Source of the DNA: Escherichia coli
GTDB lineage: Bacteria; Pseudomonadota; Gammaproteobacteria; Enterobacterales; Enterobacteriaceae
NCBI RefSeq assembly: GCF_003334765.1
Contig: NZ_QOWT01000003.1
Reading direction: 5' to 3' (one strand)
DNA: 64,000 nucleotides
This document shows positions 1 to 56,829 of this stretch, piece by piece (position 1 is the first letter of the stretch; every line of letters starts with the position of its first letter). Below the pieces are notes generated by a model, which was not told where the DNA came from, searched no databases, and was given only the letters and a program-made list of their open reading frames with translations. A program made the position numbers and the translations under genes.

Positions 1-60
1 ATGATTTGCGTTAACGTGTTGAATCTGGACAGAAAATTAAGTTGATTATGAGGTCCGTGA

Positions 61-2949
61 ATGCCCCGCAGCACCTGGTTCAAAGCATTATTGTTGTTAG
101 TTGCCCTTTGGGCACCCTTAAGTCAGGCAGAAACGGGATGGCAGCCGATTCAGGAAACCATCCGTAAAAGTGATAAAGATAACCGCCAGTATCAGGCTAT
201 ACGTCTGGATAACGGTATGGTGGTCTTGCTGGTTTCTGATCCGCAGGCAGTTAAATCGCTCTCGGCGCTGGTGGTGCCCGTTGGGTCGCTGGAAGATCCC
301 GAGGCGTACCAGGGGCTGGCACATTACCTTGAACATATGAGTCTGATGGGGTCGAAAAAGTACCCGCAGGCTGACAGTCTGGCCGAATATCTCAAAATGC
401 ACGGCGGTAGTCACAATGCCAGCACTGCGCCGTATCGCACGGCTTTCTATCTGGAAGTTGAGAACGACGCCTTGCCTGGTGCGGTAGACCGCCTGGCCGA
501 TGCTATTGCTGAACCTTTGCTCGACAAGAAATATGCCGAACGTGAGCGTAATGCGGTGAACGCTGAATTAACCATGGCGCGTACGCGTGACGGGATGCGC
601 ATGGCACAGGTCAGCGCAGAAACCATTAACCCGGCACACCCCGGTTCAAAGTTTTCTGGTGGTAACCTCGAAACTTTAAGCGACAAACCTGGTAATCCGG
701 TGCAGCAGGCGCTGAAAGATTTCCACGAGAAGTACTATTCCGCCAATTTGATGAAGGCGGTTATTTACAGTAATAAACCGCTGCCGGAGTTGGCAAAAAT
801 GGCGGCGGACACCTTTGGTCGCGTGCCGAACAAAGAGAGCAAAAAACCGGAAATCACCGTGCCGGTAGTCACCGACGCGCAAAAGGGCATTATCATTCAT
901 TACGTCCCTGCGCTGCCGCGTAAAGTGTTGCGCGTTGAGTTTCGCATCGATAACAACTCAGCGAAGTTCCGTAGTAAAACCGATGAATTGATTACCTATC
1001 TGATTGGCAATCGCAGCCCAGGTACACTTTCTGACTGGCTGCAAAAGCAGGGATTAGTTGAGGGCATTAGCGCCAACTCCGATCCTATCGTCAACGGCAA
1101 CAGCGGCGTATTAGCGATCTCTGCGTCTTTAACCGATAAAGGCTTGGCTAATCGCGATCAGGTTGTGGCGGCAATTTTTAGCTATCTCAATCTGTTACGT
1201 GAAAAAGGCATTGATAAACAATACTTCGATGAACTGGCGAATGTGCTGGATATCGACTTCCGTTATCCGTCGATCACCCGTGATATGGATTACGTCGAAT
1301 GGCTGGCAGATACCATGATTCGCGTTCCTGTTGAGCATACGCTGGATGCAGTCAATATTGCCGATCGGTACGATGCTAAAGCAGTAAAGGAACGTCTGGC
1401 GATGATGACGCCGCAGAATGCGCGTATCTGGTATATCAGCCCGAAAGAGCCGCACAACAAAACGGCTTACTTTGTCGATGCGCCGTATCAGGTCGATAAA
1501 ATCAGCGCACAAACTTTCGCCGACTGGCAGAAAAAAGCCGCCGACATTGCGCTCTCTTTGCCAGAGCTTAACCCTTATATTCCTGATGATTTCTCGCTGA
1601 TTAAGTCAGAGAAGAAATACGACCATCCAGAGCTGATTGTTGATGAGTCGAATCTGCGCGTGGTGTATGCGCCAAGCCGTTATTTTGCCAGCGAGCCCAA
1701 AGCTGATGTCAGCCTGATTTTGCGTAATCCGAAAGCCATGGACAGCGCCCGCAATCAGGTGATGTTTGCGCTCAATGATTATCTCGCAGGGCTGGCGCTT
1801 GATCAGTTAAGCAACCAGGCGTCGGTTGGTGGCATAAGTTTTTCCACCAACGCTAACAACGGCCTTATGGTTAATGCTAATGGTTACACCCAGCGTCTGC
1901 CGCAGCTGTTCCAGGCATTGCTCGAGGGGTACTTTAGCTATACCGCTACGGAAGATCAGCTTGAGCAGGCGAAGTCCTGGTATAACCAGATGATGGATTC
2001 CGCAGAAAAGGGTAAAGCGTTTGAGCAGGCGATTATGCCCGCGCAGATGCTCTCGCAAGTGCCGTACTTCTCGCGAGATGAACGGCGTAAAATTTTGCCC
2101 TCCATTACGTTGAAAGAGGTGCTGGCCTATCGCGACGCCTTAAAATCAGGGGCTCGACCAGAGTTTATGGTTATCGGCAACATGACCGAGGCCCAGGCAA
2201 CAACGCTGGCACGCGATGTGCAAAAACAGTTGGGCGCTGATGGTTCAGAGTGGTGTCGAAACAAAGATGTAGTGGTCGATAAAAAACAATCCGTCATCTT
2301 TGAAAAAGCCGGTAACAGCACCGACTCCGCACTGGCAGCGGTATTTGTACCGACTGGCTACGATGAATACACCAGCTCAGCCTATAGCTCTCTGTTGGGG
2401 CAGATCGTACAGCCGTGGTTCTACAATCAGTTGCGTACCGAAGAACAATTGGGCTATGCCGTGTTTGCGTTTCCAATGAGCGTGGGGCGTCAGTGGGGCA
2501 TGGGCTTCCTTTTGCAAAGCAATGATAAACAGCCTTCATTCTTGTGGGAGCGTTACAAGGCGTTTTTCCCAACCGCAGAGGCAAAATTGCGAGCGATGAA
2601 GCCAGATGAGTTTGCGCAAATCCAGCAGGCGGTAATTACCCAGATGCTGCAGGCACCGCAAACGCTCGGCGAAGAAGCATCGAAGTTAAGTAAAGATTTC
2701 GATCGCGGCAATATGCGCTTCGATTCGCGTGATAAAATCGTGGCCCAGATAAAACTGCTGACGCCGCAAAAACTTGCTGATTTCTTCCATCAGGCGGTGG
2801 TCGAGCCGCAAGGCATGGCTATTCTGTCGCAGATTTCCGGCAGCCAGAACGGGAAAGCCGAATATGTACACCCTGAAGGCTGGAAAGTGTGGGAGAACGT
2901 CAGCGCGTTGCAGCAAACAATGCCCCTGATGAGTGAAAAGAATGAGTGA
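61..2949 (+). CDS. ptrA: Protease III (pitrilysin), M16 zinc metallopeptidase, periplasmic
   Basis: 962-aa ORF with N-terminal signal peptide and inverted zinc motif HxxEH (HYLEHM); sequence recognised as E. coli PtrA; sits upstream of recB as expected. Confidence 0.95.
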   Translation: MPRSTWFKALLLLVALWAPLSQAETGWQPIQETIRKSDKDNRQYQAIRLDNGMVVLLVSDPQAVKSLSALVVPVGSLEDPEAYQGLAHYLEHMSLMGSKKYPQADSLAEYLKMHGGSHNASTAPYRTAFYLEVENDALPGAVDRLADAIAEPLLDKKYAERERNAVNAELTMARTRDGMRMAQVSAETINPAHPGSKFSGGNLETLSDKPGNPVQQALKDFHEKYYSANLMKAVIYSNKPLPELAKMAADTFGRVPNKESKKPEITVPVVTDAQKGIIIHYVPALPRKVLRVEFRIDNNSAKFRSKTDELITYLIGNRSPGTLSDWLQKQGLVEGISANSDPIVNGNSGVLAISASLTDKGLANRDQVVAAIFSYLNLLREKGIDKQYFDELANVLDIDFRYPSITRDMDYVEWLADTMIRVPVEHTLDAVNIADRYDAKAVKERLAMMTPQNARIWYISPKEPHNKTAYFVDAPYQVDKISAQTFADWQKKAADIALSLPELNPYIPDDFSLIKSEKKYDHPELIVDESNLRVVYAPSRYFASEPKADVSLILRNPKAMDSARNQVMFALNDYLAGLALDQLSNQASVGGISFSTNANNGLMVNANGYTQRLPQLFQALLEGYFSYTATEDQLEQAKSWYNQMMDSAEKGKAFEQAIMPAQMLSQVPYFSRDERRKILPSITLKEVLAYRDALKSGARPEFMVIGNMTEAQATTLARDVQKQLGADGSEWCRNKDVVVDKKQSVIFEKAGNSTDSALAAVFVPTGYDEYTSSAYSSLLGQIVQPWFYNQLRTEEQLGYAVFAFPMSVGRQWGMGFLLQSNDKQPSFLWERYKAFFPTAEAKLRAMKPDEFAQIQQAVITQMLQAPQTLGEEASKLSKDFDRGNMRFDSRDKIVAQIKLLTPQKLADFFHQAVVEPQGMAILSQISGSQNGKAEYVHPEGWKVWENVSALQQTMPLMSEKNE

Positions 2950-5900
2950 TGTCGCCGAGACACTAGATCCTTTGCGCTTGCCCTTACAGGGTGAGCGCCT
3001 GATTGAAGCCTCTGCCGGCACAGGCAAAACCTTTACGATTGCGGCGCTCTATTTGCGCCTGTTACTTGGACTAGGCGGTTCCGCCGCCTTTCCCCGCCCG
3101 CTGACCGTTGAAGAACTGCTGGTGGTCACCTTTACCGAGGCTGCCACGGCAGAATTGCGCGGTCGTATCCGTAGCAATATCCACGAGTTGCGCATCGCCT
3201 GTCTGCGTGAAACCACCGACAATCCACTGTACGAACGCCTGCTGGAAGAGATCGACGATAAAGCGCAAGCCGCGCAGTGGTTGTTGTTAGCCGAACGGCA
3301 GATGGATGAAGCGGCAGTCTTTACTATTCACGGCTTTTGCCAGCGCATGCTCAACCTGAATGCCTTTGAATCCGGCATGCTGTTTGAGCAGCAGCTGATT
3401 GAAGATGAGTCTCTGCTACGCTACCAGGCCTGCGCCGATTTCTGGCGTCGCCACTGCTACCCGCTGCCGCGTGAAATAGCCCAGGTCGTCTTTGAAACCT
3501 GGAAAGGGCCGCAGGCGTTGCTGCGCGATATTAATCGTTATCTGCAAGGCGAAGCGCCGGTTATCAAAGCACCGCCGCCCGATGATGAAACGCTGGCTTC
3601 CCGTCACGCGCAAATTGTGGCGCGTATTGATACGGTAAAACAGCAGTGGCGCGACGCAGTGGGTGAACTGGATGCGCTGATCGAATCTTCTGGTATTGAT
3701 CGACGCAAGTTTAACCGTAGCAATCAGGCTAAATGGATCGACAAGATCAGCGCCTGGGCAGAAGAAGAGACAAACAGTTATCAGTTGCCGGAGTCGCTGG
3801 AAAAATTCTCCCAGCGTTTCTTAGAAGATCGCACGAAGGCCGGGGGGGGAACCCCGCGACATCCACTGTTTGAGGCGATCGATCAACTGCTTGCAGAACC
3901 ATTGTCGATCCGCGATCTGGTGATCACCCGCGCATTGGCTGAGATCCGCGAAACAGTAGCGCGTGAAAAACGCCGCCGTGGCGAATTGGGTTTTGATGAC
4001 ATGTTAAGTCGGCTCGATTCCGCGCTGCGTAGCGAAAGCGGTGAGGTGTTGGCAGCGGCGATCCGTACGCGATTCCCGGTGGCAATGATCGATGAATTTC
4101 AGGATACCGACCCCCAGCAGTACCGAATTTTTCGCCGTATCTGGCACCATCAGCCGGAAACCGCATTGTTGCTAATTGGCGACCCGAAGCAGGCCATATA
4201 TGCATTCCGGGGTGCGGATATCTTCACTTATATGAAGGCGCGTAGCGAAGTTCACGCCCACTACACTTTAGACACCAACTGGCGTTCCGCACCAGGAATG
4301 GTGAACAGCGTGAATAAGCTTTTCAGCCAGACTGATGACGCGTTCATGTTTCGCGAAATACCGTTTATTCCAGTGAAATCAGCCGGGAAAAATCAGGCGT
4401 TACGTTTTGTATTTAAAGGTGAAACACAGCCTGCGATGAAAATGTGGCTGATGGAAGGCGAAAGCTGCGGCGTTGGCGATTATCAAAGTACCATGGCGCA
4501 GGTATGTGCTGCGCAAATCCGCGACTGGCTACAAGCCGGACAGCGGGGCGAAGCGTTGCTGATGAACGGCGACGACGCGCGTCCGGTGCGTGCTTCGGAC
4601 ATCAGTGTGCTGGTGCGCAGCCGCCAGGAGGCCGCCCAGGTGCGCGATGCCTTAACGTTGCTGGAAATCCCTTCCGTTTACCTTTCGAACCGCGACAGTG
4701 TTTTTGAAACTCTGGAAGCGCAGGAAATGCTTTGGTTGTTGCAGGCGGTGATGACGCCCGAACGTGAGAACACCCTGCGTAGTGCGCTGGCAACGTCAAT
4801 GATGGGGCTGAACGCGCTGGATATCGAAACGCTGAACAATGACGAACATGCGTGGGATGTGGTAGTCGAAGAGTTCGATGGTTATCGGCAAATCTGGCGC
4901 AAACGTGGCGTTATGCCGATGCTGCGGGCGCTGATGTCGGCGCGTAACATTGCTGAAAACTTGCTGGCAACGGCAGGCGGTGAGCGGCGTCTTACCGATA
5001 TCTTGCATATCAGCGAACTGCTACAAGAAGCCGGAACGCAGCTGGAAAGTGAACATGCGCTGGTACGCTGGTTATCGCAACATATCCTCGAGCCAGACAG
5101 TAATGCCTCCAGCCAACAAATGCGTCTCGAAAGTGATAAACATCTGGTGCAGATTGTCACGATCCACAAATCGAAAGGGCTGGAATATCCATTGGTCTGG
5201 CTGCCGTTTATCACCAATTTCCGCGTCCAGGAGCAGGCGTTTTATCACGATCGCCACTCGTTTGAGGCAGTTCTGGATCTTAATGCTGCGCCAGAAAGCG
5301 TCGACCTCGCGGAGGCCGAACGTCTGGCGGAAGATCTGCGTTTGCTTTACGTGGCGCTGACACGTTCGGTTTGGCATTGCAGTCTCGGCGTTGCACCGCT
5401 GGTGCGCCGTCGTGGCGATAAAAAAGGTGACACCGACGTCCACCAAAGTGCGCTCGGGCGTTTGCTGCAAAAAGGGGAACCGCAAGATGCGGCAGGGCTT
5501 CGCACCTGTATTGAAGCGTTATGCGATGATGATATTGCCTGGCAAACGGCACAAACTGGTGATAACCAACCCTGGCAGGTTAATGATGTTTCTACAGCAG
5601 AGCTGAATGCGAAGACGTTACAACGATTGCCCGGCGATAACTGGCGCGTCACCAGCTACTCTGGTTTGCAACAGCGTGGTCACGGTATCGCCCAGGATTT
5701 GATGCCTCGGCTGGATGTCGATGCTGCAGGCGTTGCCAGCGTCGTTGAAGAACCGACGTTAACACCACATCAGTTTCCGCGCGGTGCGTCACCGGGGACG
5801 TTCTTGCACAGTTTGTTTGAAGACCTGGATTTTACCCAGCCGGTTGACCCGAACTGGGTGCGGGAAAAACTGGAACTCGGCGGCTTTGAATCGCAGTGGG

Positions 5901-6484
5901 AACCGGTATTGACCGAGTGGATCACGGCTGTCCTCCAGGCACCTCTCAATGAAACCGGCGTAAGCCTGAGTCAACTTTCCGCCCGCAATAAACAGGTGGA
6001 GATGGAGTTTTATCTGCCGATTAGTGAACCGCTTATCGCCAGTCAGCTTGATACGTTAATCCGCCAGTTTGACCCGCTATCCGCAGGCTGCCCGCCGCTG
6101 GAGTTCATGCAGGTACGTGGCATGTTAAAAGGCTTTATCGACCTGGTGTTCCGCCACGAAGGGCGTTATTACCTGCTCGACTATAAATCCAACTGGTTGG
6201 GTGAAGACAGTTCGGCTTACACCCAACAGGCTATGGCAGCGGCAATGCAGGCACACCGCTATGATCTGCAATATCAGCTTTATACCCTGGCGCTGCATCG
6301 TTATCTGCGCCATCGCATTGCTGATTACGACTATGAGCACCACTTTGGCGGCGTTATTTATCTGTTCCTGCGTGGCGTTGATAAAGAACATCCGCAACAG
6401 GGGATTTACACAACCCGACCCAACGCCGGGTTGATTGCCCTGATGGATGAGATGTTTGCCGGTATGACCCTGGAGGAGGCGTAA
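2942..6484 (+). CDS. recB: RecBCD helicase/nuclease subunit RecB
   Basis: ORF track gives 2933..6484 from a GTG; the recognised N-terminus [15 protein letters not shown] begins at ATG 2942, giving 1180 aa; Walker A motif AGTGKT; start overlaps ptrA stop by 8 nt. Confidence 0.95.
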
Positions 6485-8310
6485 TGAAATTGCAAAAGCA
6501 ATTACTGGAAGCTGTGGAGCACAAACAGCTACGCCCGCTGGATGTGCAATTTGCCCTGACCGTGGCGGGAGATGAACATCCTGCCGTCACCCTCGCGGCG
6601 GCACTGTTAAGTCATGATGCCGGAGAGGGACACGTTTGTTTGCCGCTTTCACGACTGGAAAATAACGAGGCGTCGCATCCGCTGTTGGCGACCTGTGTCA
6701 GTGAAATCGGTGAGCTACAAAATTGGGAAGAATGCTTGCTGGCTTCTCAAGCGGTCAGCAGGGGAGATGAACCCACGCCGATGATCCTCTGTGGCGATCG
6801 TCTTTATTTGAATCGCATGTGGTGTAACGAGCGCACAGTGGCACGCTTTTTCAACGAAGTGAATCATGCCATTGAGGTTGATGAAGCTCTACTGGCGCAA
6901 ACCCTGGACAAACTTTTTCCAGTAAGCGATGAAATTAACTGGCAAAAAGTTGCGGCGGCAGTGGCGCTGACGCGGCGGATCTCGGTGATTTCCGGCGGCC
7001 CTGGCACCGGTAAAACGACCACCGTAGCGAAGTTGCTGGCAGCGTTAATTCAAATGGCCGACGGCGAACGCTGCCGTATCCGTCTGGCTGCACCAACGGG
7101 TAAAGCTGCCGCGCGCTTAACCGAATCTCTCGGCAAGGCTTTGCGACAGTTACCGCTGACCGATGAACAAAAGAAACGCATTCCGGAAGATGCCAGCACT
7201 TTGCACCGATTGCTGGGCGCGCAGCCGGGTAGCCAGCGTTTACGTCATCATGCCGGTAACCCGCTGCATCTTGATGTGCTGGTGGTAGATGAAGCGTCAA
7301 TGATCGATCTGCCTATGATGTCGAGACTGATCGACGCCTTGCCCGATCATGCGCGAGTGATCTTTCTCGGCGATCGTGATCAACTGGCCTCGGTTGAGGC
7401 TGGGGCTGTGCTGGGCGATATCTGCGCTTATGCCAACGCGGGCTTTACCGCCGAGCGTGCCAGGCAGCTAAGCCGCCTGACGGGGACTCACGTTCCGGCA
7501 GGAACCGGCACAGAAGCGGCATCTTTGCGCGACAGTCTCTGCCTGCTGCAAAAAAGCTATCGTTTCGGCAGCGATTCTGGCATTGGTCAGTTAGCTGCGG
7601 CGATCAACCGTGGTGATAAAACGGCAGTGAAAACCGTTTTTCAGCAGGATTTTACTGATATCGAAAAACGGCTTTTACAGAGCGGCGAAGATTATATTGC
7701 GATGCTTGAGGAAGCTCTTGCGGGTTACGGACGTTATCTGGATCTGCTGCAAGCGCGTGCCGAGCCGGATTTAATCATTCAGGCGTTCAATGAGTACCAG
7801 CTTTTGTGCGCCCTGCGGGAAGGGCCGTTTGGCGTGGCTGGACTGAATGAGCGAATTGAGCAGTTTATGCAACAGAAGCGCAAAATTCATCGTCATCCGC
7901 ACTCTCGTTGGTACGAAGGTCGACCGGTGATGATTGCCCGTAATGACAGCGCGCTTGGGTTGTTTAATGGCGATATCGGTATTGCGCTGGATCGCGGGCA
8001 GGGGACGCGCGTCTGGTTTGCGATGCCGGACGGCAATATTAAGTCTGTGCAACCGAGTCGCTTGCCAGAGCACGAAACTACGTGGGCGATGACGGTACAT
8101 AAATCGCAGGGATCGGAGTTCGACCATGCGGCGTTGATTTTGCCGAGCCAACGCACGCCGGTAGTAACGCGAGAGCTGGTTTATACCGCGGTGACCCGCG
8201 CGCGTCGCCGTCTGTCGCTGTATGCCGATGAGCGCATATTAAGTGCGGCAATCGCCACTCGTACTGAGCGGCGCAGTGGTCTGGCGGCGTTGTTTAGTTC
8301 ACGGGAATAA
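6484..8310 (+). CDS. recD: RecBCD helicase subunit RecD
   Basis: 608-aa ORF with P-loop GGPGTGKTT; start ATG overlaps recB stop (TAATG); recognised as RecD. Confidence 0.95.
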
Positions 8311-11261: not shown

Positions 11262-11338
<77 letters not shown>

Positions 11339-12678: not shown

Positions 12679-12863
12679 CAGGGTGAGGGGTAACCTCACA
12701 TCCTGATTATTGACTAAGTGCGCGTTGTTCATGCCGGATGCGGCGTGAACGCCTTATCCGGCCTACAAATCATGCAAATCCAAAATATTGCAGGAGTTAT
12801 GTAGGCCTGATAAGCGTAGCGCATCAGGCATTTATGCGTTTAGGGTGAGGGATAACCTCGCCC
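12679..12863. repeat. BIME/REP cluster: two inverted REP palindromes flanked by near-identical hairpin-forming direct repeats
   Basis: REP copies GCCGGATGCGGCGTGAACGCCTTATCCGGCCTAC (12733-12766) and inverted GTAGGCCTGATAAGCGTAGCGCATCAGGC (12801-12829); flanking GGGTGAGGG(G/A)TAACCTC at 12681-12700 and 12843-12860. Confidence 0.8.
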
Positions 12864-15823: not shown

Positions 15824-16029
15824 AAAAAAAAGCACCGCAATTAGGCGGTGCTACATTAATCACTATGGACAGACAGGGTAAATGTACAGGAAGTGAAAAA
15901 AGGTAGCTTTGCTACCATGGTCTGAATCGCAGACCAATTGCAAACACAACAACACAACATCACAACCGTAAGCCAAAAGTTCACCAGAACACGCATTCCG
16001 ATAAAACTTTTCGTTCCGGCTCAGGAAGT
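15824..16029 (-). ncRNA. gcvB: GcvB small regulatory RNA (Hfq-dependent, regulates amino-acid transporters)
   Basis: Reverse complement reads ACTTCCTGAGCCGGAACGAAAAG...GCACCGCCTAATTGCGGTGCTTTTTTT, the 206-nt GcvB sequence with GU-rich R1 region and intrinsic terminator; divergent from gcvA. Confidence 0.92.
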
Positions 16030-34200: not shown

Positions 34201-34569
34201 GTCGACAGGGAGTCAGACAACGAAGTGAACATCAGGATGATGACACTTCTGCAGGACACACCAGGATGGTGTTTCAGGGAAAGGCTTCTGGATGAAGCGA
34301 AGAGGATGACGCAGGACGCGTTAAAGGACACCTCCAGGATGGAGAATGAGAACCGGTCAGGATGATTCGGTGGGTCAGGAAGGCCAGGGACACTTCAGGA
34401 TGAAGTATCACATCGGGGTGGTGTGAGCAGGAAGCAATAGTTCAGGATGAACGATTGGCCGCAAGGCCAGAGGAAAAGTTGTCAAGGATGAGCAGGGAGC
34501 AACAAAAGTAGCTGGAATGCTGCGAAACGAACCGGGAGCGCTGTGAATACAGTGCTCCCTTTTTTTATT
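34201..34569 (+). ncRNA. csrB: CsrB sRNA, CsrA-sequestering decoy
   Basis: About 369 nt beginning GTCGACAGGGAGTCAGACAACGAAG with roughly 18-22 GGA motifs, mostly CAGGA(U/A)G in predicted loops; ends in hairpin GGGAGCGCTGTGAATACAGTGCTCCC plus T7. Confidence 0.93.
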
Positions 34570-36190: not shown

Positions 36191-36624
36191 TATGTTCAGC
36201 GAGCGGTAAATGTCGTTTTAGCGGTGCTGAATCGAATCTTTTCAGGCAAATGTCAGTAAAAACTGCTTCATAGCGCGGATTTTTACTGGCGTTTGCCTGG
36301 AGTCAAGCGATCCATTTCATACTCTTCTTTATTTCTTCGTTTTAACCCTTCCTTTCTTGTTCTTGTTTTCATTTCCGTGAAGTGGATTCCACCGTCCAGG
36401 GCTAATGCCAAAATCGGGCCTCATTGAACGCATTAATGTTGTGTTGTTGCACGGTGAGCCGCTATGGCGCGCTTTTTATACTGCTATTGCCAGATATAAA
36501 CACGCGCCGTATTCGGCGAACGACCTATAAAAACGGCAAAAAACACCCTACGTCACCTCTGATTTCCTGGCGATGTCGCAGTCCAGAGTGAGCGTGGCTA
36601 ACGCGAATTTTCAGGAGTGCAACA

Positions 36625-53306: not shown

Positions 53307-53978
53307 ATGCAGTACCCGATTAACGAGATGTTCCAGACCCTGCAAGGTGAGGGTTACTTTACCGGCGTTCCCGCCATTTTTATTCGTTTACAGGGATGCC
53401 CGGTTGGCTGTGCCTGGTGCGACACCAAACACACCTGGGAAAAGCTTGAGGATCGGGAAGTCTCCCTTTTCAGCATTCTGGCGAAGACCAAAGAGAGTGA
53501 TAAGTGGGGGGCTGCGAGCAGTGAAGATTTGCTGGCTGTCATTGGTCGCCAGGGATACACCGCGCGGCATGTGGTGATTACGGGTGGTGAGCCTTGCATT
53601 CATGATTTGCTGCCACTGACTGATCTGCTCGAAAAGAACGGTTTTAGCTGCCAGATCGAAACCAGTGGTACTCATGAGGTACGCTGCACACCGAATACCT
53701 GGGTTACCGTATCGCCAAAGCTGAACATGCGCGGCGGCTATGAAGTGTTGTCACAGGCACTGGAGCGAGCCAACGAAATCAAGCATCCAGTGGGGCGCGT
53801 ACGCGATATTGAAGCACTGGATGAACTACTGGCAACGCTGACCGATGATAAACCGCGAGTCATTGCACTGCAGCCGATTAGCCAAAAGGATGATGCCACA
53901 CGTTTGTGCATTGAAACCTGCATTGCGCGTAATTGGCGTTTGTCGATGCAAACACATAAATATCTAAATATTGCCTGA
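53307..53978 (+). CDS. queE: 7-carboxy-7-deazaguanine synthase (radical SAM, queuosine pathway)
   Basis: 223-aa ORF with cysteine motif CxxxCxxC (RLQGCPVGCAWCDT); recognised as QueE (YgcF). Confidence 0.92.
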   Translation: MQYPINEMFQTLQGEGYFTGVPAIFIRLQGCPVGCAWCDTKHTWEKLEDREVSLFSILAKTKESDKWGAASSEDLLAVIGRQGYTARHVVITGGEPCIHDLLPLTDLLEKNGFSCQIETSGTHEVRCTPNTWVTVSPKLNMRGGYEVLSQALERANEIKHPVGRVRDIEALDELLATLTDDKPRVIALQPISQKDDATRLCIETCIARNWRLSMQTHKYLNIA

Positions 53979-54099
53979 TTAAACATTTATAAGCGTTATA
54001 AATGGGTGGAACCTGTAAAGACTTCTACTCATTTATATTGTTTGTCGCCTCTGAAAACTCCTCCATTTTACCCATCCAGGGCTAATCATTAGCATTCTC

Positions 54100-54317
54100 T
54101 ACAAATTCTGTGGCATTAATTTTTCGCTGGAGTGAAAATTATTGCGGTAAAGTTTGGTAGATTTTAGTTTGTATAGAGTTATTTTAAATATTTACCTTTT
54201 TAATCAATGGATTAAGTGCTCTTTAACATAATGGATGTGTTGTTTGTGTGATACTATAAAGTTGGTAGATTGTGACTGGCTTAAAAAATCATTAATTAAT
54301 AATAGGTTATGTTTAGA
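54100..54317 (+). promoter_or_regulatory. AT-rich CRISPR leader (promoter-containing) directly upstream of the first repeat
   Basis: AT-rich tract ending ...CTGGCTTAAAAAATCATTAATTAATAATAGGTTATGTTTAGA immediately before repeat 1; upstream boundary approximate. Confidence 0.7.
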
Positions 54318-54712
54318 GTGTTCCCCGCGCCAGCGGGGATAAACCGGCAAAAACCGGGCAATCGCAAAAAGGCGTAATGTGTTCCCCGCGCCAGCGGGGA
54401 TAAACCTGTGTTTGCGGCATTAACGCTCACCAGCATTTCGTGTTCCCCGCGCCAGCGGGGATAAACCGACGTGGTCATGGGTGCTGCTGTTGCAGAGCCA
54501 GTGTTCCCCGCGCCAGCGGGGATAAACCGAGCAGATACACGGCTTTGTATTCCGTGCGCCCGTGTTCCCCGCGCCAGCGGGGATAAACCGAATAGCAATA
54601 GTCCATAGATTTGCGAAAACAGGTGTTCCCCGCGCCAGCGGGGATAAACCGGAGCCTGACGAGACTACTGAGGCCGTTCTGTCGAGTTCCCCGCGCCAGC
54701 GGGGATAAACCA
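54318..54712 (+). CRISPR. Type I-E CRISPR array, 7 repeats and 6 spacers of 32 bp, leader-proximal end at 54318
   Basis: 29-bp repeat GTGTTCCCCGCGCCAGCGGGGATAAACCG at 54318, 54379, 54440, 54501, 54562, 54623 and 54684 with 61-bp period; repeat 2 ends CCT; terminal repeat is degenerate (GAG...ACCA). Confidence 0.96.
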
Positions 54713-55166
54713 CCATATAACCCGTTATCTCTTTCTCAAGTTTTTATATTAGCAGTACTTGTAATAAGCAACATATCCACGTAACACCTCATGTTCAAAA
54801 TAGTTCTCCATGCCAGAGAGGTTCACAATTATCGATACAAAAAATTAAATTTAATCAAAGTGTTATTTGTATGATTCTTAAATCGTTAAGAAATTTTAAT
54901 CTATTATTTTTTTAATATTGAATTAATGCCTGTTAATTTTTTCTTTAGAATAACAGTATATTTTTTAAGCTTGTTATTCATTGGTTAAGTAATAAATCTG
55001 GAAGTTTGTCTTTGTTTTGAGGCTAATGAGTGGTTTTACATAACCGCCTCTATACGCTGTTGATGAATAGTTCTTATGAATAAAGATATCCAGTTCATAC
55101 TTTAAGTGAAAATTGATAAAGTGCGATTCGTATTGTCTTTTATTCTAAAGACATCGAGTGTAGTTA

Positions 55167-55304
55167 ATATTCCTTGTAAAAACAGGGATAAACCGAACTA
55201 GTTAAAGTTTTTATTATGTTCCCTGCATCAGCGGGGATAAACCGGACTTGTTATCATTTTTTAAGTTGTCGAACTTATGTTCCCCGCGTCAGCGGGGATA
55301 ACCA
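55167..55304 (+). CRISPR. Degenerate I-E mini-array: 2 recognisable repeats, 1 clean 32-bp spacer, 1 eroded repeat
   Basis: ATGTTCCCTGCATCAGCGGGGATAAACCG (55216-55244), spacer GACTTGTTATCATTTTTTAAGTTGTCGAACTT (55245-55276), ATGTTCCCCGCGTCAGCGGGGATAACC (55277-55303); eroded repeat ending GGGATAAACCG at about 55195. Confidence 0.75.
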
Positions 55305-55350
55305 TTCAGGTATGTTCAGGCCGGGCAGTTTCCCGCCCGGCCTTCCTCAC

Positions 55351-56829
55351 TTACGCATTCGACCAGCTCTGGATCGAATCCACATTCCCCAATTCCCCAT
55401 GCATCACTTCATACGATTTTTTCAGGATCACATCAGTATGTTTGGTTAGGTCTTTGAAAATGCCTTTATTCATCGCGTCGTAGCGTTTGGCATTGCTCTC
55501 AATCGGTATAAAGATATCTTTCACGCGAACCATGTTATCGACAGCCGTTGCGTAATCCGGGTATAGCCCCAGACCTACCGCTGTATTAATCGCTGCCCCC
55601 AGGCTTGCACAACCGTTAATGGCGTTACGTCGTGCCGGAAGGTTGAACACGTCGGCAAAAATCTGCATAAACAGATCGCTGTTCGAACCGCCGCCAGTAA
55701 TGATCACATGCTTCGCAAAGTGATTCATTTCATTACACATATTGTCGTAATTGTTCTTCAGCGTCAGCGCCACGCTTTCCAGTATCGAACGATATATCCA
55801 TGCGTAATCCATGCTGGAATCAAAGCCGATCATAATCCCGCGTTTGTACGGTTCCCACGGATTGGTCAGCCAGTCCAGCACCGTCATCAGACCATTACAG
55901 CCTGGCGGCACACAAGAAGCTTTTTTGTTGAGTAAATCTTCCGGTGAAAGATCCTGCGCCCTGGCATCCTGAATTAACGACTCGCCTAGCATGTCGCGCA
56001 GCCAGCTCACCGTCCACATGCCTTTGCGAATACCGTAACCTTCATACAGCAATGTTTGCGGAATAGAAGACATAATCGGCCAGTACGCTACTGGATCTTT
56101 CGGCAGTGCTTTGCCGTTCATCATCAATGCGATGTAAGTGCCAAGAGAAATTACCGCCGTTTCATCATCCAGTAATCCGGCCCCCAGAGCTTCTACCGGT
56201 TTATCACTGGTGGTACAAACAACCGGCAGTCCTGCCGGGAAATGTGTCGCCAGTGCGGCTTGTGGTGTGATATGTCCGAGGACGGTGCCAGGCATTTGCA
56301 CATCAAACAGCATATGACGGGGGATATTAAACTTATCCATTACCGCAGCATCTTCGCTCCATGCCCAGCTCTTATAATCCACCGGCCACTGACCAAAATA
56401 GTTGGCGATATTGTCTTTAAACTCGCCGGTTAAGCGATGCGTCAGATAACCCGAAAAAGAGGTGACATATGCCACGTCAGGGTTAGTGTGTTCGTAAGGG
56501 CGTGTAACGCGTGCATCCTGCCAGCTAATCAACGGCGCAGCAGGCGTGCCATCGGCTTTCAATAACGCACGGCAGCAACGGATGGATCCCAGACCAATAC
56601 CGACAATATCTTCTTTATTCCCGGCAAACTGACTCATCAAATCGTGACCGGCAAAACATAATGATGCCCATAAATCGTCGTCAGGATGTTCTGCAGTATC
56701 GGCATCTGGCGTGTGCATCGGCTGTAATAAGCCTTTGCCTTCGCAAACCACGTTACCTTCCAGATCGTACATCACCACTTTTGTGCTCTGACTTCCGCCA
56801 TCAATCCCTATGATGTATTTTTTCGACAT
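55351..56829 (-). CDS. ygcE: FGGY-family carbohydrate kinase, substrate unknown
   Basis: 492-aa ORF recognised as YgcE; FGGY N- and C-terminal domains. Confidence 0.88.
   Translation of the reverse strand: MSKKYIIGIDGGSQSTKVVMYDLEGNVVCEGKGLLQPMHTPDADTAEHPDDDLWASLCFAGHDLMSQFAGNKEDIVGIGLGSIRCCRALLKADGTPAAPLISWQDARVTRPYEHTNPDVAYVTSFSGYLTHRLTGEFKDNIANYFGQWPVDYKSWAWSEDAAVMDKFNIPRHMLFDVQMPGTVLGHITPQAALATHFPAGLPVVCTTSDKPVEALGAGLLDDETAVISLGTYIALMMNGKALPKDPVAYWPIMSSIPQTLLYEGYGIRKGMWTVSWLRDMLGESLIQDARAQDLSPEDLLNKKASCVPPGCNGLMTVLDWLTNPWEPYKRGIMIGFDSSMDYAWIYRSILESVALTLKNNYDNMCNEMNHFAKHVIITGGGSNSDLFMQIFADVFNLPARRNAINGCASLGAAINTAVGLGLYPDYATAVDNMVRVKDIFIPIESNAKRYDAMNKGIFKDLTKHTDVILKKSYEVMHGELGNVDSIQSWSNA

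Follow-up and report, generated by a model that had tools for sequence, protein, structure and literature searches.

The type I-E CRISPR2.3 array in a K-12-like segment of the Escherichia coli chromosome: a known array, probably a fossil in its present lineage

Between queE (ygcF) and ygcE, the 64-kb stretch of Escherichia coli DNA analysed here (hereafter the window) carries a CRISPR array of seven 29-nt repeats and six 32-nt spacers at 54318-54712, whose crRNA sense is that of the plus strand and which is followed 0.45 kb downstream by the remnant of a second array (Table 1). The neighbouring genes were placed by mapping MG1655 coordinates, which bears out the position given in a preliminary description of this DNA. 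The order queE, CRISPR2.3, CRISPR2.2, ygcE is that of the CRISPR-II locus, which lies between ygcE and ygcF and consists of CRISPR2.3 and CRISPR2.2 at a distance of 0.5 kb (PMC3903273). No cas gene was found in the window, as had been stated, and none is annotated in the K-12 interval colinear with it.

The repeats share a 26-nt core, GTTCCCCGCGCCAGCGGGGATAAACC, which occurs in seven exact copies at 61-nt spacing between 54320 and 54711 and was found in none of 100 dinucleotide-preserving shuffles of the window. The array is thus composed of six units of exactly 61 nt, and no two of its spacers are related. All seven repeats fit the type I-E consensus GWGTTCCCCGCGCCAGCGGGGATAAACCG, the published 29-nt form (PMC3338789), with repeats 2 and 7 differing at the last base only; in the E. 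coli I-E system this base derives from the PAM (PMC3338789). A fold with a 7-bp stem and a 4-nt loop is predicted for both repeat variants (-15.1 to -15.2 kcal/mol), and the palindromic repeat is accordingly predicted to be able to form a stem-loop of the Cas6e type. The count of seven repeats and six spacers, the assignment to type I-E and the six spacer sequences listed in the preliminary description are all exactly as found here. Every feature of a type I-E array which can be tested on sequence is present.

Table 1. Features of the CRISPR-II locus and its surroundings, in window coordinates
Feature	Position	Strand	Remarks
queE (ygcF)	53307..53978	+	placed by MG1655 coordinate mapping
queE-array intergenic region incl. 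CRISPR2.3 leader	53979..54317	+	339 bp, 30% G+C
leader box, -59..-44	54259..54274	+	AAGTTGGTAGATTGTG; 12/16 identical to K-12 CRISPR-I leader at the same offset
leader region, -35..-9	54283..54309	+	17/27 identical to CRISPR-I leader at the same offset
repeat 1	54318..54346	+	GTGTTCCCCGCGCCAGCGGGGATAAACCG; predicted 7-bp hairpin, -15.2 kcal/mol
spacer S1	54347..54378	+	leader-proximal, newest
repeat 2	54379..54407	+	ends CCT, not CCG (T at 54407)
spacer S2	54408..54439	+	related to HK97-type portal genes
repeat 3	54440..54468	+	
spacer S3	54469..54500	+	
repeat 4	54501..54529	+	
spacer S4	54530..54561	+	32/32 to prophage tail-sheath gene
repeat 5	54562..54590	+	
spacer S5	54591..54622	+	32/32 to E. 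albertii lambdoid prophage integrase gene
repeat 6	54623..54651	+	
spacer S6	54652..54683	+	trailer end; oldest, most widely shared
repeat 7	54684..54712	+	terminal degenerate form GAG...CCA, GAGTTCCCCGCGCCAGCGGGGATAAACCA
inter-array region CRISPR2.3-CRISPR2.2	54713..55166	.	AT-rich, 28% G+C
CRISPR2.2 remnant ('CRISPR III' in some authors)	55167..55305	+	3 degenerate repeats
ygcE	55351..56829	-	placed by MG1655 coordinate mapping

It is vanishingly improbable that the structure is a chance repetition or a tandem repeat of some other kind, such as a minisatellite or a REP-like element. Tandem repetition as such is all that such an element would share with the array, whereas exact repeats separated by mutually unrelated 32-nt spacers, the absence of the core from shuffled sequence, the canonical I-E hairpin repeat and the spacer matches to prophage genes with PAMs described below all speak against it. 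Furthermore, related genomes carry, between queE and ygcE, the same feature of 395 nt, which RefSeq annotates as CRISPR. A scan of the window at Rfam gathering thresholds returned CsrB, GcvB, one tRNA and ES036 only, and no CRISPR repeat family.

The CRISPR2.2 remnant consists of repeats at 55167-55195, 55216-55244 and 55277-55305, separated by spacers of 20 nt and 32 nt. It differs from CRISPR2.3 in its degenerate repeats, in its one truncated spacer of 20 nt and in having no recognised leader; the 7-bp hairpin is still predicted for all three of its repeats. This remnant, the CCT end of repeat 2, the degenerate form of the last repeat and the difference of the window from K-12 itself all escaped the preliminary description.

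The G+C content of the array is 60%, compared with 51% for the window and 30% for the intergenic region upstream. This AT-rich region, taken as the leader in the preliminary description, is 100% identical to MG1655 and contains the CRISPR2.3 leader of K-12, whose function has experimental backing (PMC3338789, PMC3737337). Expansion of the array in BL21-AI, which lacks cas genes, depends on the first 40-60 bp of this leader (PMC3737337), and the repeat-proximal 60 bp of the leader at 54258-54317 are the stretch reported as needed for spacer integration. Two parts of it resemble the leader of CRISPR-I, in which boxes for integrase anchoring and for IHF have been defined (PMC5224486). The box at -59 to -44 is, judged by its sequence and offset, the positional counterpart of the CRISPR-I box which holds the integrase anchoring site, and the region from -35 to -9 may correspond in position to the region bound by IHF. 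Published CRISPR2.3 primers map as expected, with BG3414 at 54156-54178 in the leader and BG3415 at 54474-54492 in S3. When the spacer sequences were sought in the text of published papers, one paper proved to print S3. A scan for sigma-70 promoters and terminators around the array produced nothing better than was obtained with shuffled sequence.

The identity of the array is established by comparison with K-12. The window is colinear with MG1655 2,894,725-2,958,944 at 99.98% identity, and the sole gap is a 220-bp deletion amounting to two tandem copies of tRNA-fMet, of which the window has one copy and K-12 three. The array itself corresponds to MG1655 2,904,013-2,904,407 and is 100% identical to it, base for base; the six spacers stand in the same order, and K-12 has the same CCT at the close of repeat 2 and the same terminal repeat. 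Over the array and the 15 kb around it there is one SNP relative to MG1655, and this lies outside the array. Swarts et al. described in K-12 a 'locus 2.3 (6 spacers)' without nearby cas genes, as well as a CCG to CCT polymorphism in repeat 2 of CRISPR locus 2.3 (PMC3338789). The array is therefore the type I-E CRISPR2.3 (CRISPR-II) array of E. coli, which is already known and well studied. Position, leader, seven repeats and six spacers are shared with CRISPR2.3 of K-12, and the difference between the two lies only in the genomic background.

The preliminary description presented the array as an orphan. As a discovery this does not stand, since the split layout, with CRISPR-I beside the cas genes and CRISPR-II between ygcE and ygcF, is standard for the I-E system of E. 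coli (PMC3903273). In MG1655 the array is separated by 16.8 kb from cas3 (2,884,553-2,887,219), a gene whose position falls 7.5 kb outside the right end of the window, and by about 24 kb from cas1-cas2. The accompanying suggestion that acquisition and interference would have to operate at a distance is correct, and has already been demonstrated in K-12. In a K-12 strain deleted for hns, new spacers had entered CRISPR2.3, in every case beside the leader, in 74% of the plasmid-immune clones (PMC3338789), and spacers of either CRISPR locus in K-12 give equal interference (PMC3338789). Sequencing of CRISPR-II has since come into routine use as a read-out of adaptation, both naive and primed, in cells given Cas1-Cas2 on a plasmid (PMC11879090). 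Since the Cas proteins and IHF are diffusible, a distance of 17-24 kb between array and cas genes is immaterial. The notion that distance from cas is mechanistically special was considered and rejected, the action of Cas proteins in trans having been shown experimentally (PMC3338789).

The course of events at such an array can be outlined from the literature on K-12 and BL21, from which transcription, crRNA processing, acquisition and interference are all taken here. Given an I-E cas operon which is both present and expressed, a leader promoter would drive transcription of the array on the plus strand of the window, and Cas6e would cut each hairpin repeat to yield crRNAs of 61 nt. Guided by these, Cascade and Cas3 would attack DNA bearing a protospacer beside a PAM of the AAG or ATG type, whilst Cas1-Cas2, with IHF on the leader, would insert new spacers at repeat 1.

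The two arrays of the split layout are alike in many respects. CRISPR2.1 (CRISPR-I, next to cas2) has the same repeat family and 61-nt unit as CRISPR2.3 and a related leader, identical at 12/16 and 17/27 positions in the two boxes, and one set of Cas proteins serves them both (PMC3338789). They differ in that CRISPR2.1 is immediately adjacent to the cas operon, with a leader which co-varies with the cas variant (PMC3903273), while a single form of the CRISPR2.3 leader is found in E1, E2 and cas-less strains alike, and its locus tracks the phylogeny of the strains more closely (PMC3903273).

Comparison across strains shows how the array has grown. When the spacers alone were used as query, 1701 of 5426 complete E. 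coli genomes proved to carry one or more of the six; S5 is present in arrays of 1365 of the 5426. The pattern of sharing was read from an evenly spaced sample of 60 rows, all of which fell in a chromosomal array and 58 of which were annotated as CRISPR. Of the two without annotation, one is a minimal array at this locus: the lone match to S3 in Z1323PEC0013, where the annotation read 'none', was considered as a protospacer and rejected, as it proved to be an array of one spacer. The other, in MS 196-1, lies at the usual position of the array. Within the sample the spacers are shared in a nested fashion, beginning at the trailer: some genomes have S6 alone (for example BL21(DE3)), and others have S5-S6, S4-S6 or S3-S6, with all six spacers occurring together in about one third of the rows. 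The array thus grows at the leader end, and the spacers held in common are the old ones near the trailer. In UMNK88, where cas3 and casA are present (the sequence compared ends within casA), S1-S6 are joined by two extra spacers next to the leader, and in BE2-5, with intact cas3 and casA, the array at this locus has reached 2.35 kb and retains S5. These two arrays and the nested sharing are evidence that the locus has been active in nature.

The targets of the spacers were sought among INPHARED phages, PLSDB plasmids, IMG/VR, JGI metagenomes, GTDB representatives and the 5426 E. coli genomes. The preliminary description looked to the targets to make the array informative, and protospacers or close relatives of them could indeed be traced for three of the six spacers (S2, S4 and S5). 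S5 agrees at 32/32 positions with a lambdoid prophage, in the antisense strand of its integrase gene, where the PAM is ATG. The prophage lies beside nudL-sdaA on contig BBVG01000029.1 and has genes for Cro, O, P, KilR, Gam, exonuclease, excisionase and integrase. Escherichia albertii is the species to which this integrase (WP_059216020.1) belongs, and the core genes of the host are 87.7% identical to those of E. coli. Its gene has no megablast match in the 5426 complete E. coli genomes and no near-identical megablast match in INPHARED, and a 24-mer of S5 is absent from the GTDB species representatives. Integrases labelled as E. coli, with 90% identity or more to the target, are found at NCBI in draft assemblies. 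Furthermore, the CRISPR-II array of strain 165 contains a different spacer against this same integrase, with a PAM of AAG. Two independent acquisitions have therefore been directed at the integrase, which makes it a real natural target.

For S4 the match is again 32/32 and antisense, and lies in the tail-sheath gene carried by a contractile-tailed phage on metagenome contig ULSO01073812.1. Among complete E. coli genomes, STEC384 and STEC379 alone contain this 14.6 kb of phage DNA at 100% identity, as a prophage which ends beside ttcA. The PAM of the S4 protospacer is ATC, which is not the consensus. The end of the repeat at S4 implies that the donor had G at position -1, where ATC has C. This position is the wobble base of a leucine codon, so that CTG to CTC would give ATG and leave the amino acid unchanged. 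ATC has been listed among interfering or intermediate PAMs (PMC6568314). The ATC of the S4 target may be a trace of interference in the wild, that is, a PAM escape variant selected by this remote array, but such a reading appears rather improbable.

S2 has no perfect match; it agrees at 28-30 of 32 positions with portal genes of HK97-type temperate phages of Klebsiella and E. coli. The matches lie in 82 phage or prophage sequences and are accompanied by GCG, GCC or GTT, which are non-functional as PAMs. Compared with the commonest variant of the portal gene, three of four differences fall at wobble positions, position -1 among them. These differences fit a homologous donor phage and a last repeat base derived from its PAM. 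A check for PAMs beside the protospacers, proposed at the outset, was thus borne out for S5 and, with ATC, for S4, and failed for S2.

For S1 no target was found in INPHARED, PLSDB, IMG/VR or the JGI metagenomes, and its seed is absent from the latter; S3 and S6 likewise gave no target in the databases searched. In IMG/VR, 18-mer seeds of S1, S3 and S4 yielded chance matches only (21-24/32, with unrelated flanks) and that of S6 none. BLASTN with the whole array against INPHARED and PLSDB recovered repeat-to-repeat matches, the portal matches of S2, and short chance matches running into repeats. The targets which were identified are all genes of temperate phages or prophages, in agreement with the recent view that spacers of E. 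coli are mainly directed at prophages (PMC10910852). The preliminary description had proposed that spacers all identical to a reference strain array, and without identifiable protospacers, would mark an ordinary fossil. The spacer set is indeed identical to that of the reference K-12 array, which makes the array an ordinary one by this reckoning, but identifiable protospacers do exist.

Whether the array is served by Cas proteins in its own genome depends upon the strain from which the window comes. Ten SNPs separate the window from MG1655 over 64 kb. At none of the five K-12-specific SNPs does the window have the K-12 allele, and five further SNPs are private to it; it does not come from K-12 itself. 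No complete genome in the collection reproduces the window exactly. The closest complete genomes have at least 3 mismatches over window positions 1-25000, and none has both of the private SNPs at 36253 and 37512. The presence of cas genes was scored at the iap-cysH region in eleven close wild relatives. No cas operon is present there in nine of these (EC416, SCPM-O-B-12142, BR1220, WP5-S17-ESBL-10, ECCTRSRTH03, WP7-S17-ESBL-04, RM10410, Z217-2 and FORC 064), in which the layout is cysH-hok-IS421-short CRISPR-iap; the arrangement cysH-hok-IS421-CRISPR-iap is that described as a deletion by Almendros et al. (PMC3903273). N18-04097 has cas3 and casA of the other variant at iap-cysH, and MIN9 has a decayed operon of the K-12 type, with casA interrupted and casB cut by IS1. 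K-12 has the cas operon, in marked contrast to most of the closest wild relatives of the window.

The sequence at the right end of the window points the same way. The 9.3 kb from the array to this end are identical to those of three cas-less genomes, and differ by at least one SNP from every compared genome with cas genes at iap-cysH, a set which includes M217 (cas3::IS1) and W5-6 (cas3 frameshifted). Taken together, the cas-less relatives and the right-end haplotype make it probable that the source genome has no I-E cas genes, in which case the array is a fossil as far as the whole genome is concerned.

It is possible, though unlikely, that the array is instead a live remote array, served as in K-12 by an I-E cas operon just past the right end of the window. 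The position of cas3 and cas1-cas2 in MG1655 is what would be expected of such an arrangement, cas3 and casA are found downstream of the array locus in K-12, UMNK88, N18-04097 and BE2-5, and function in trans is an experimental fact (PMC3338789). S1-S6 are carried by K-12 and UMNK88, both of which bear cas genes, and at least S5 by BE2-5. Against this stand the window's lack of every K-12-specific allele, the absence of cas genes from nine of the eleven close wild relatives together with the decay of the operon in a tenth, MIN9, and a right-end haplotype which is that of cas-less genomes. Moreover, silencing under laboratory conditions is reported even for the operon of K-12 (PMC10910852). The preliminary description placed the cas operon beyond the right end of the window, in line with the organisation of E. 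coli genomes; this is correct for K-12 but may not apply to the present genome.

Loss of the cas genes thus remains the preferred reading for the source genome, and the source strain would then probably belong to the group A lineages which lost the cas operon through a deletion associated with IS421 (IS4-like). In a genome without cas genes the array would be inert, preserving by inheritance a record of prophages met in the past, and only cas genes supplied to it, as in BL21-AI, would reactivate it. BL21 and BL21-AI, which have no I-E cas genes, likewise possess an array of type 2 repeats with the CRISPR2.3 leader, and that of BL21-AI takes up spacers once Cas1-Cas2 are supplied (PMC3737337). 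The array of BL21(DE3) has only S6 in common with the six spacers of the window.

The leader and repeats are perfectly conserved in cas-less genomes and spacers of the set are widespread among E. coli genomes, from which it might be argued that the array is kept in cas-less lineages for a role independent of Cas proteins of its own type, as a regulatory RNA or for use by another type of CRISPR system. The close genomes compared diverge by only a few SNPs per 10 kb, however, and at such low divergence the conservation of the array can be explained without selection. Some genomes have arrays of a single spacer at this locus, which resembles neutral loss, and the I-F system of E. coli has a different type of repeat (PMC3903273). 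Such a role is accordingly very improbable.

Overall, the evidence is almost certainly best explained by the known CRISPR2.3 array, served in trans where cas genes exist and probably a fossil in the present genome. The array reported in the preliminary description is real, was correctly described and was already known; as a standard experimental tool which has been studied in detail, it has little weight as a discovery. Most of the wild strains examined which carry this exact array have lost cas, so that one and the same sequence can be a working remote array or an inert fossil. It is a served remote array in K-12 and most likely a fossil in the lineage of the window, and sequence resembling that of K-12 is thus no guarantee of the K-12 cas operon.

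What remains of interest in the array is this caution over cas status, the newly traced protospacers and the possible signature of PAM escape at the S4 target. Three of the six classic spacers of K-12 CRISPR-II can now be tied to genes of temperate phages, encoding an integrase, a tail sheath and a portal. If the PAM-escape reading were true, then together with the two spacers against the integrase it would mean that the 'silent' I-E system of E. coli excludes specific prophages in nature.

In CRISPR2.2, the degenerate remnant array downstream of the main array CRISPR2.3, several stem positions of the three degenerate repeats deviate from the consensus, the pairing CCCCGC/GCGGGG becoming for example CCUUGU/ACAGGG, yet the same 7-bp hairpin is still predicted for all three. 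This may be a sign that the changes compensated one another or that selection once acted on the structure.

In strain BE2-5 the queE–ygcE locus holds a CRISPR array of 2.35 kb with roughly 38 spacers. Spacer S5 is still present there and cas3 is intact; BE2-5 thereby shows the same 'remote' array in a highly active form. In strain 720632 the S1–S6 array is apparently found in two copies, one with an IS1 nearby; either a segment of the genome was duplicated or the second copy could be an artefact of assembly. In WP5-S17-ESBL-10, a close relative without the cas operon, the IS421 and hok adjoining cysH border rpiA and argP, not iap. This arrangement points to a large-scale inversion or other rearrangement, one breakpoint of which would lie at the IS element now occupying the place of the cas operon.

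Features within the window and in related records
Feature	Record	Position	Remark
ptrA, recB, recD	window	1-8300	recC just upstream
tRNA-fMet	window	11265-11338	single gene
ES036 (CssrF) sRNA family	window	12766-12808	Rfam, 46.5 bits (gathering score 37.6)
GcvB	window	15824-16029	Rfam, as expected
CsrB	window	34210-34569	Rfam, as expected
Private single-base alleles (n=5)	window	1144, 15563, 16084, 36253, 37512	
CRISPR2.2	window	55167-55305	
queE–ygcE array, BE2-5	NZ_CP032986.1	1,036,702-1,039,050	
IS421/hok, WP5-S17-ESBL-10	NZ_AP022105.1	875,599-877,056	
S1–S6 array copies, 720632	NZ_CP025842.1	around 1,565,409-1,565,745; around 4,077,512-4,079,889	
S4 target	L120 (ULSO01073812.1)	3565-3599	
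S4 target prophage region	NZ_CP091029.1	2637859-2652461	

The recBCD genes and CRISPR2.3 lie within one window, and the recBCD product supplies DNA fragments for naive type I-E adaptation. Their co-occurrence almost certainly just reflects the gene order of K-12 rather than any functional linkage.

The tandem tRNA-fMet genes (metZWV) number three in MG1655, EC416 and SCPM-O-B-12142 versus one in the window, which shows a 220-bp gap relative to these strains; BR1220 has one copy. Several K-12 assemblies also appear to have one, since they align across this stretch as a single ungapped piece of 25,000 bp. Copy number is either variable between assemblies or collapsed in some of them. Alleles were judged private to the window by comparison with K-12, EC416, SCPM-O-B-12142 and BR1220. 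Two of them, 36253T and 37512G, occur together in none of 5426 complete E. coli genomes, and therefore either the window derives from a lineage absent from these genomes or the private alleles are sequencing errors.

The prophage targeted by spacer S4, in its tail-sheath gene, adjoins ttcA and is found only in STEC384 and STEC379 (two of 5426 genomes). If these strains also carry S4, the spacer would be self-targeting, and tolerated through the ATC PAM.
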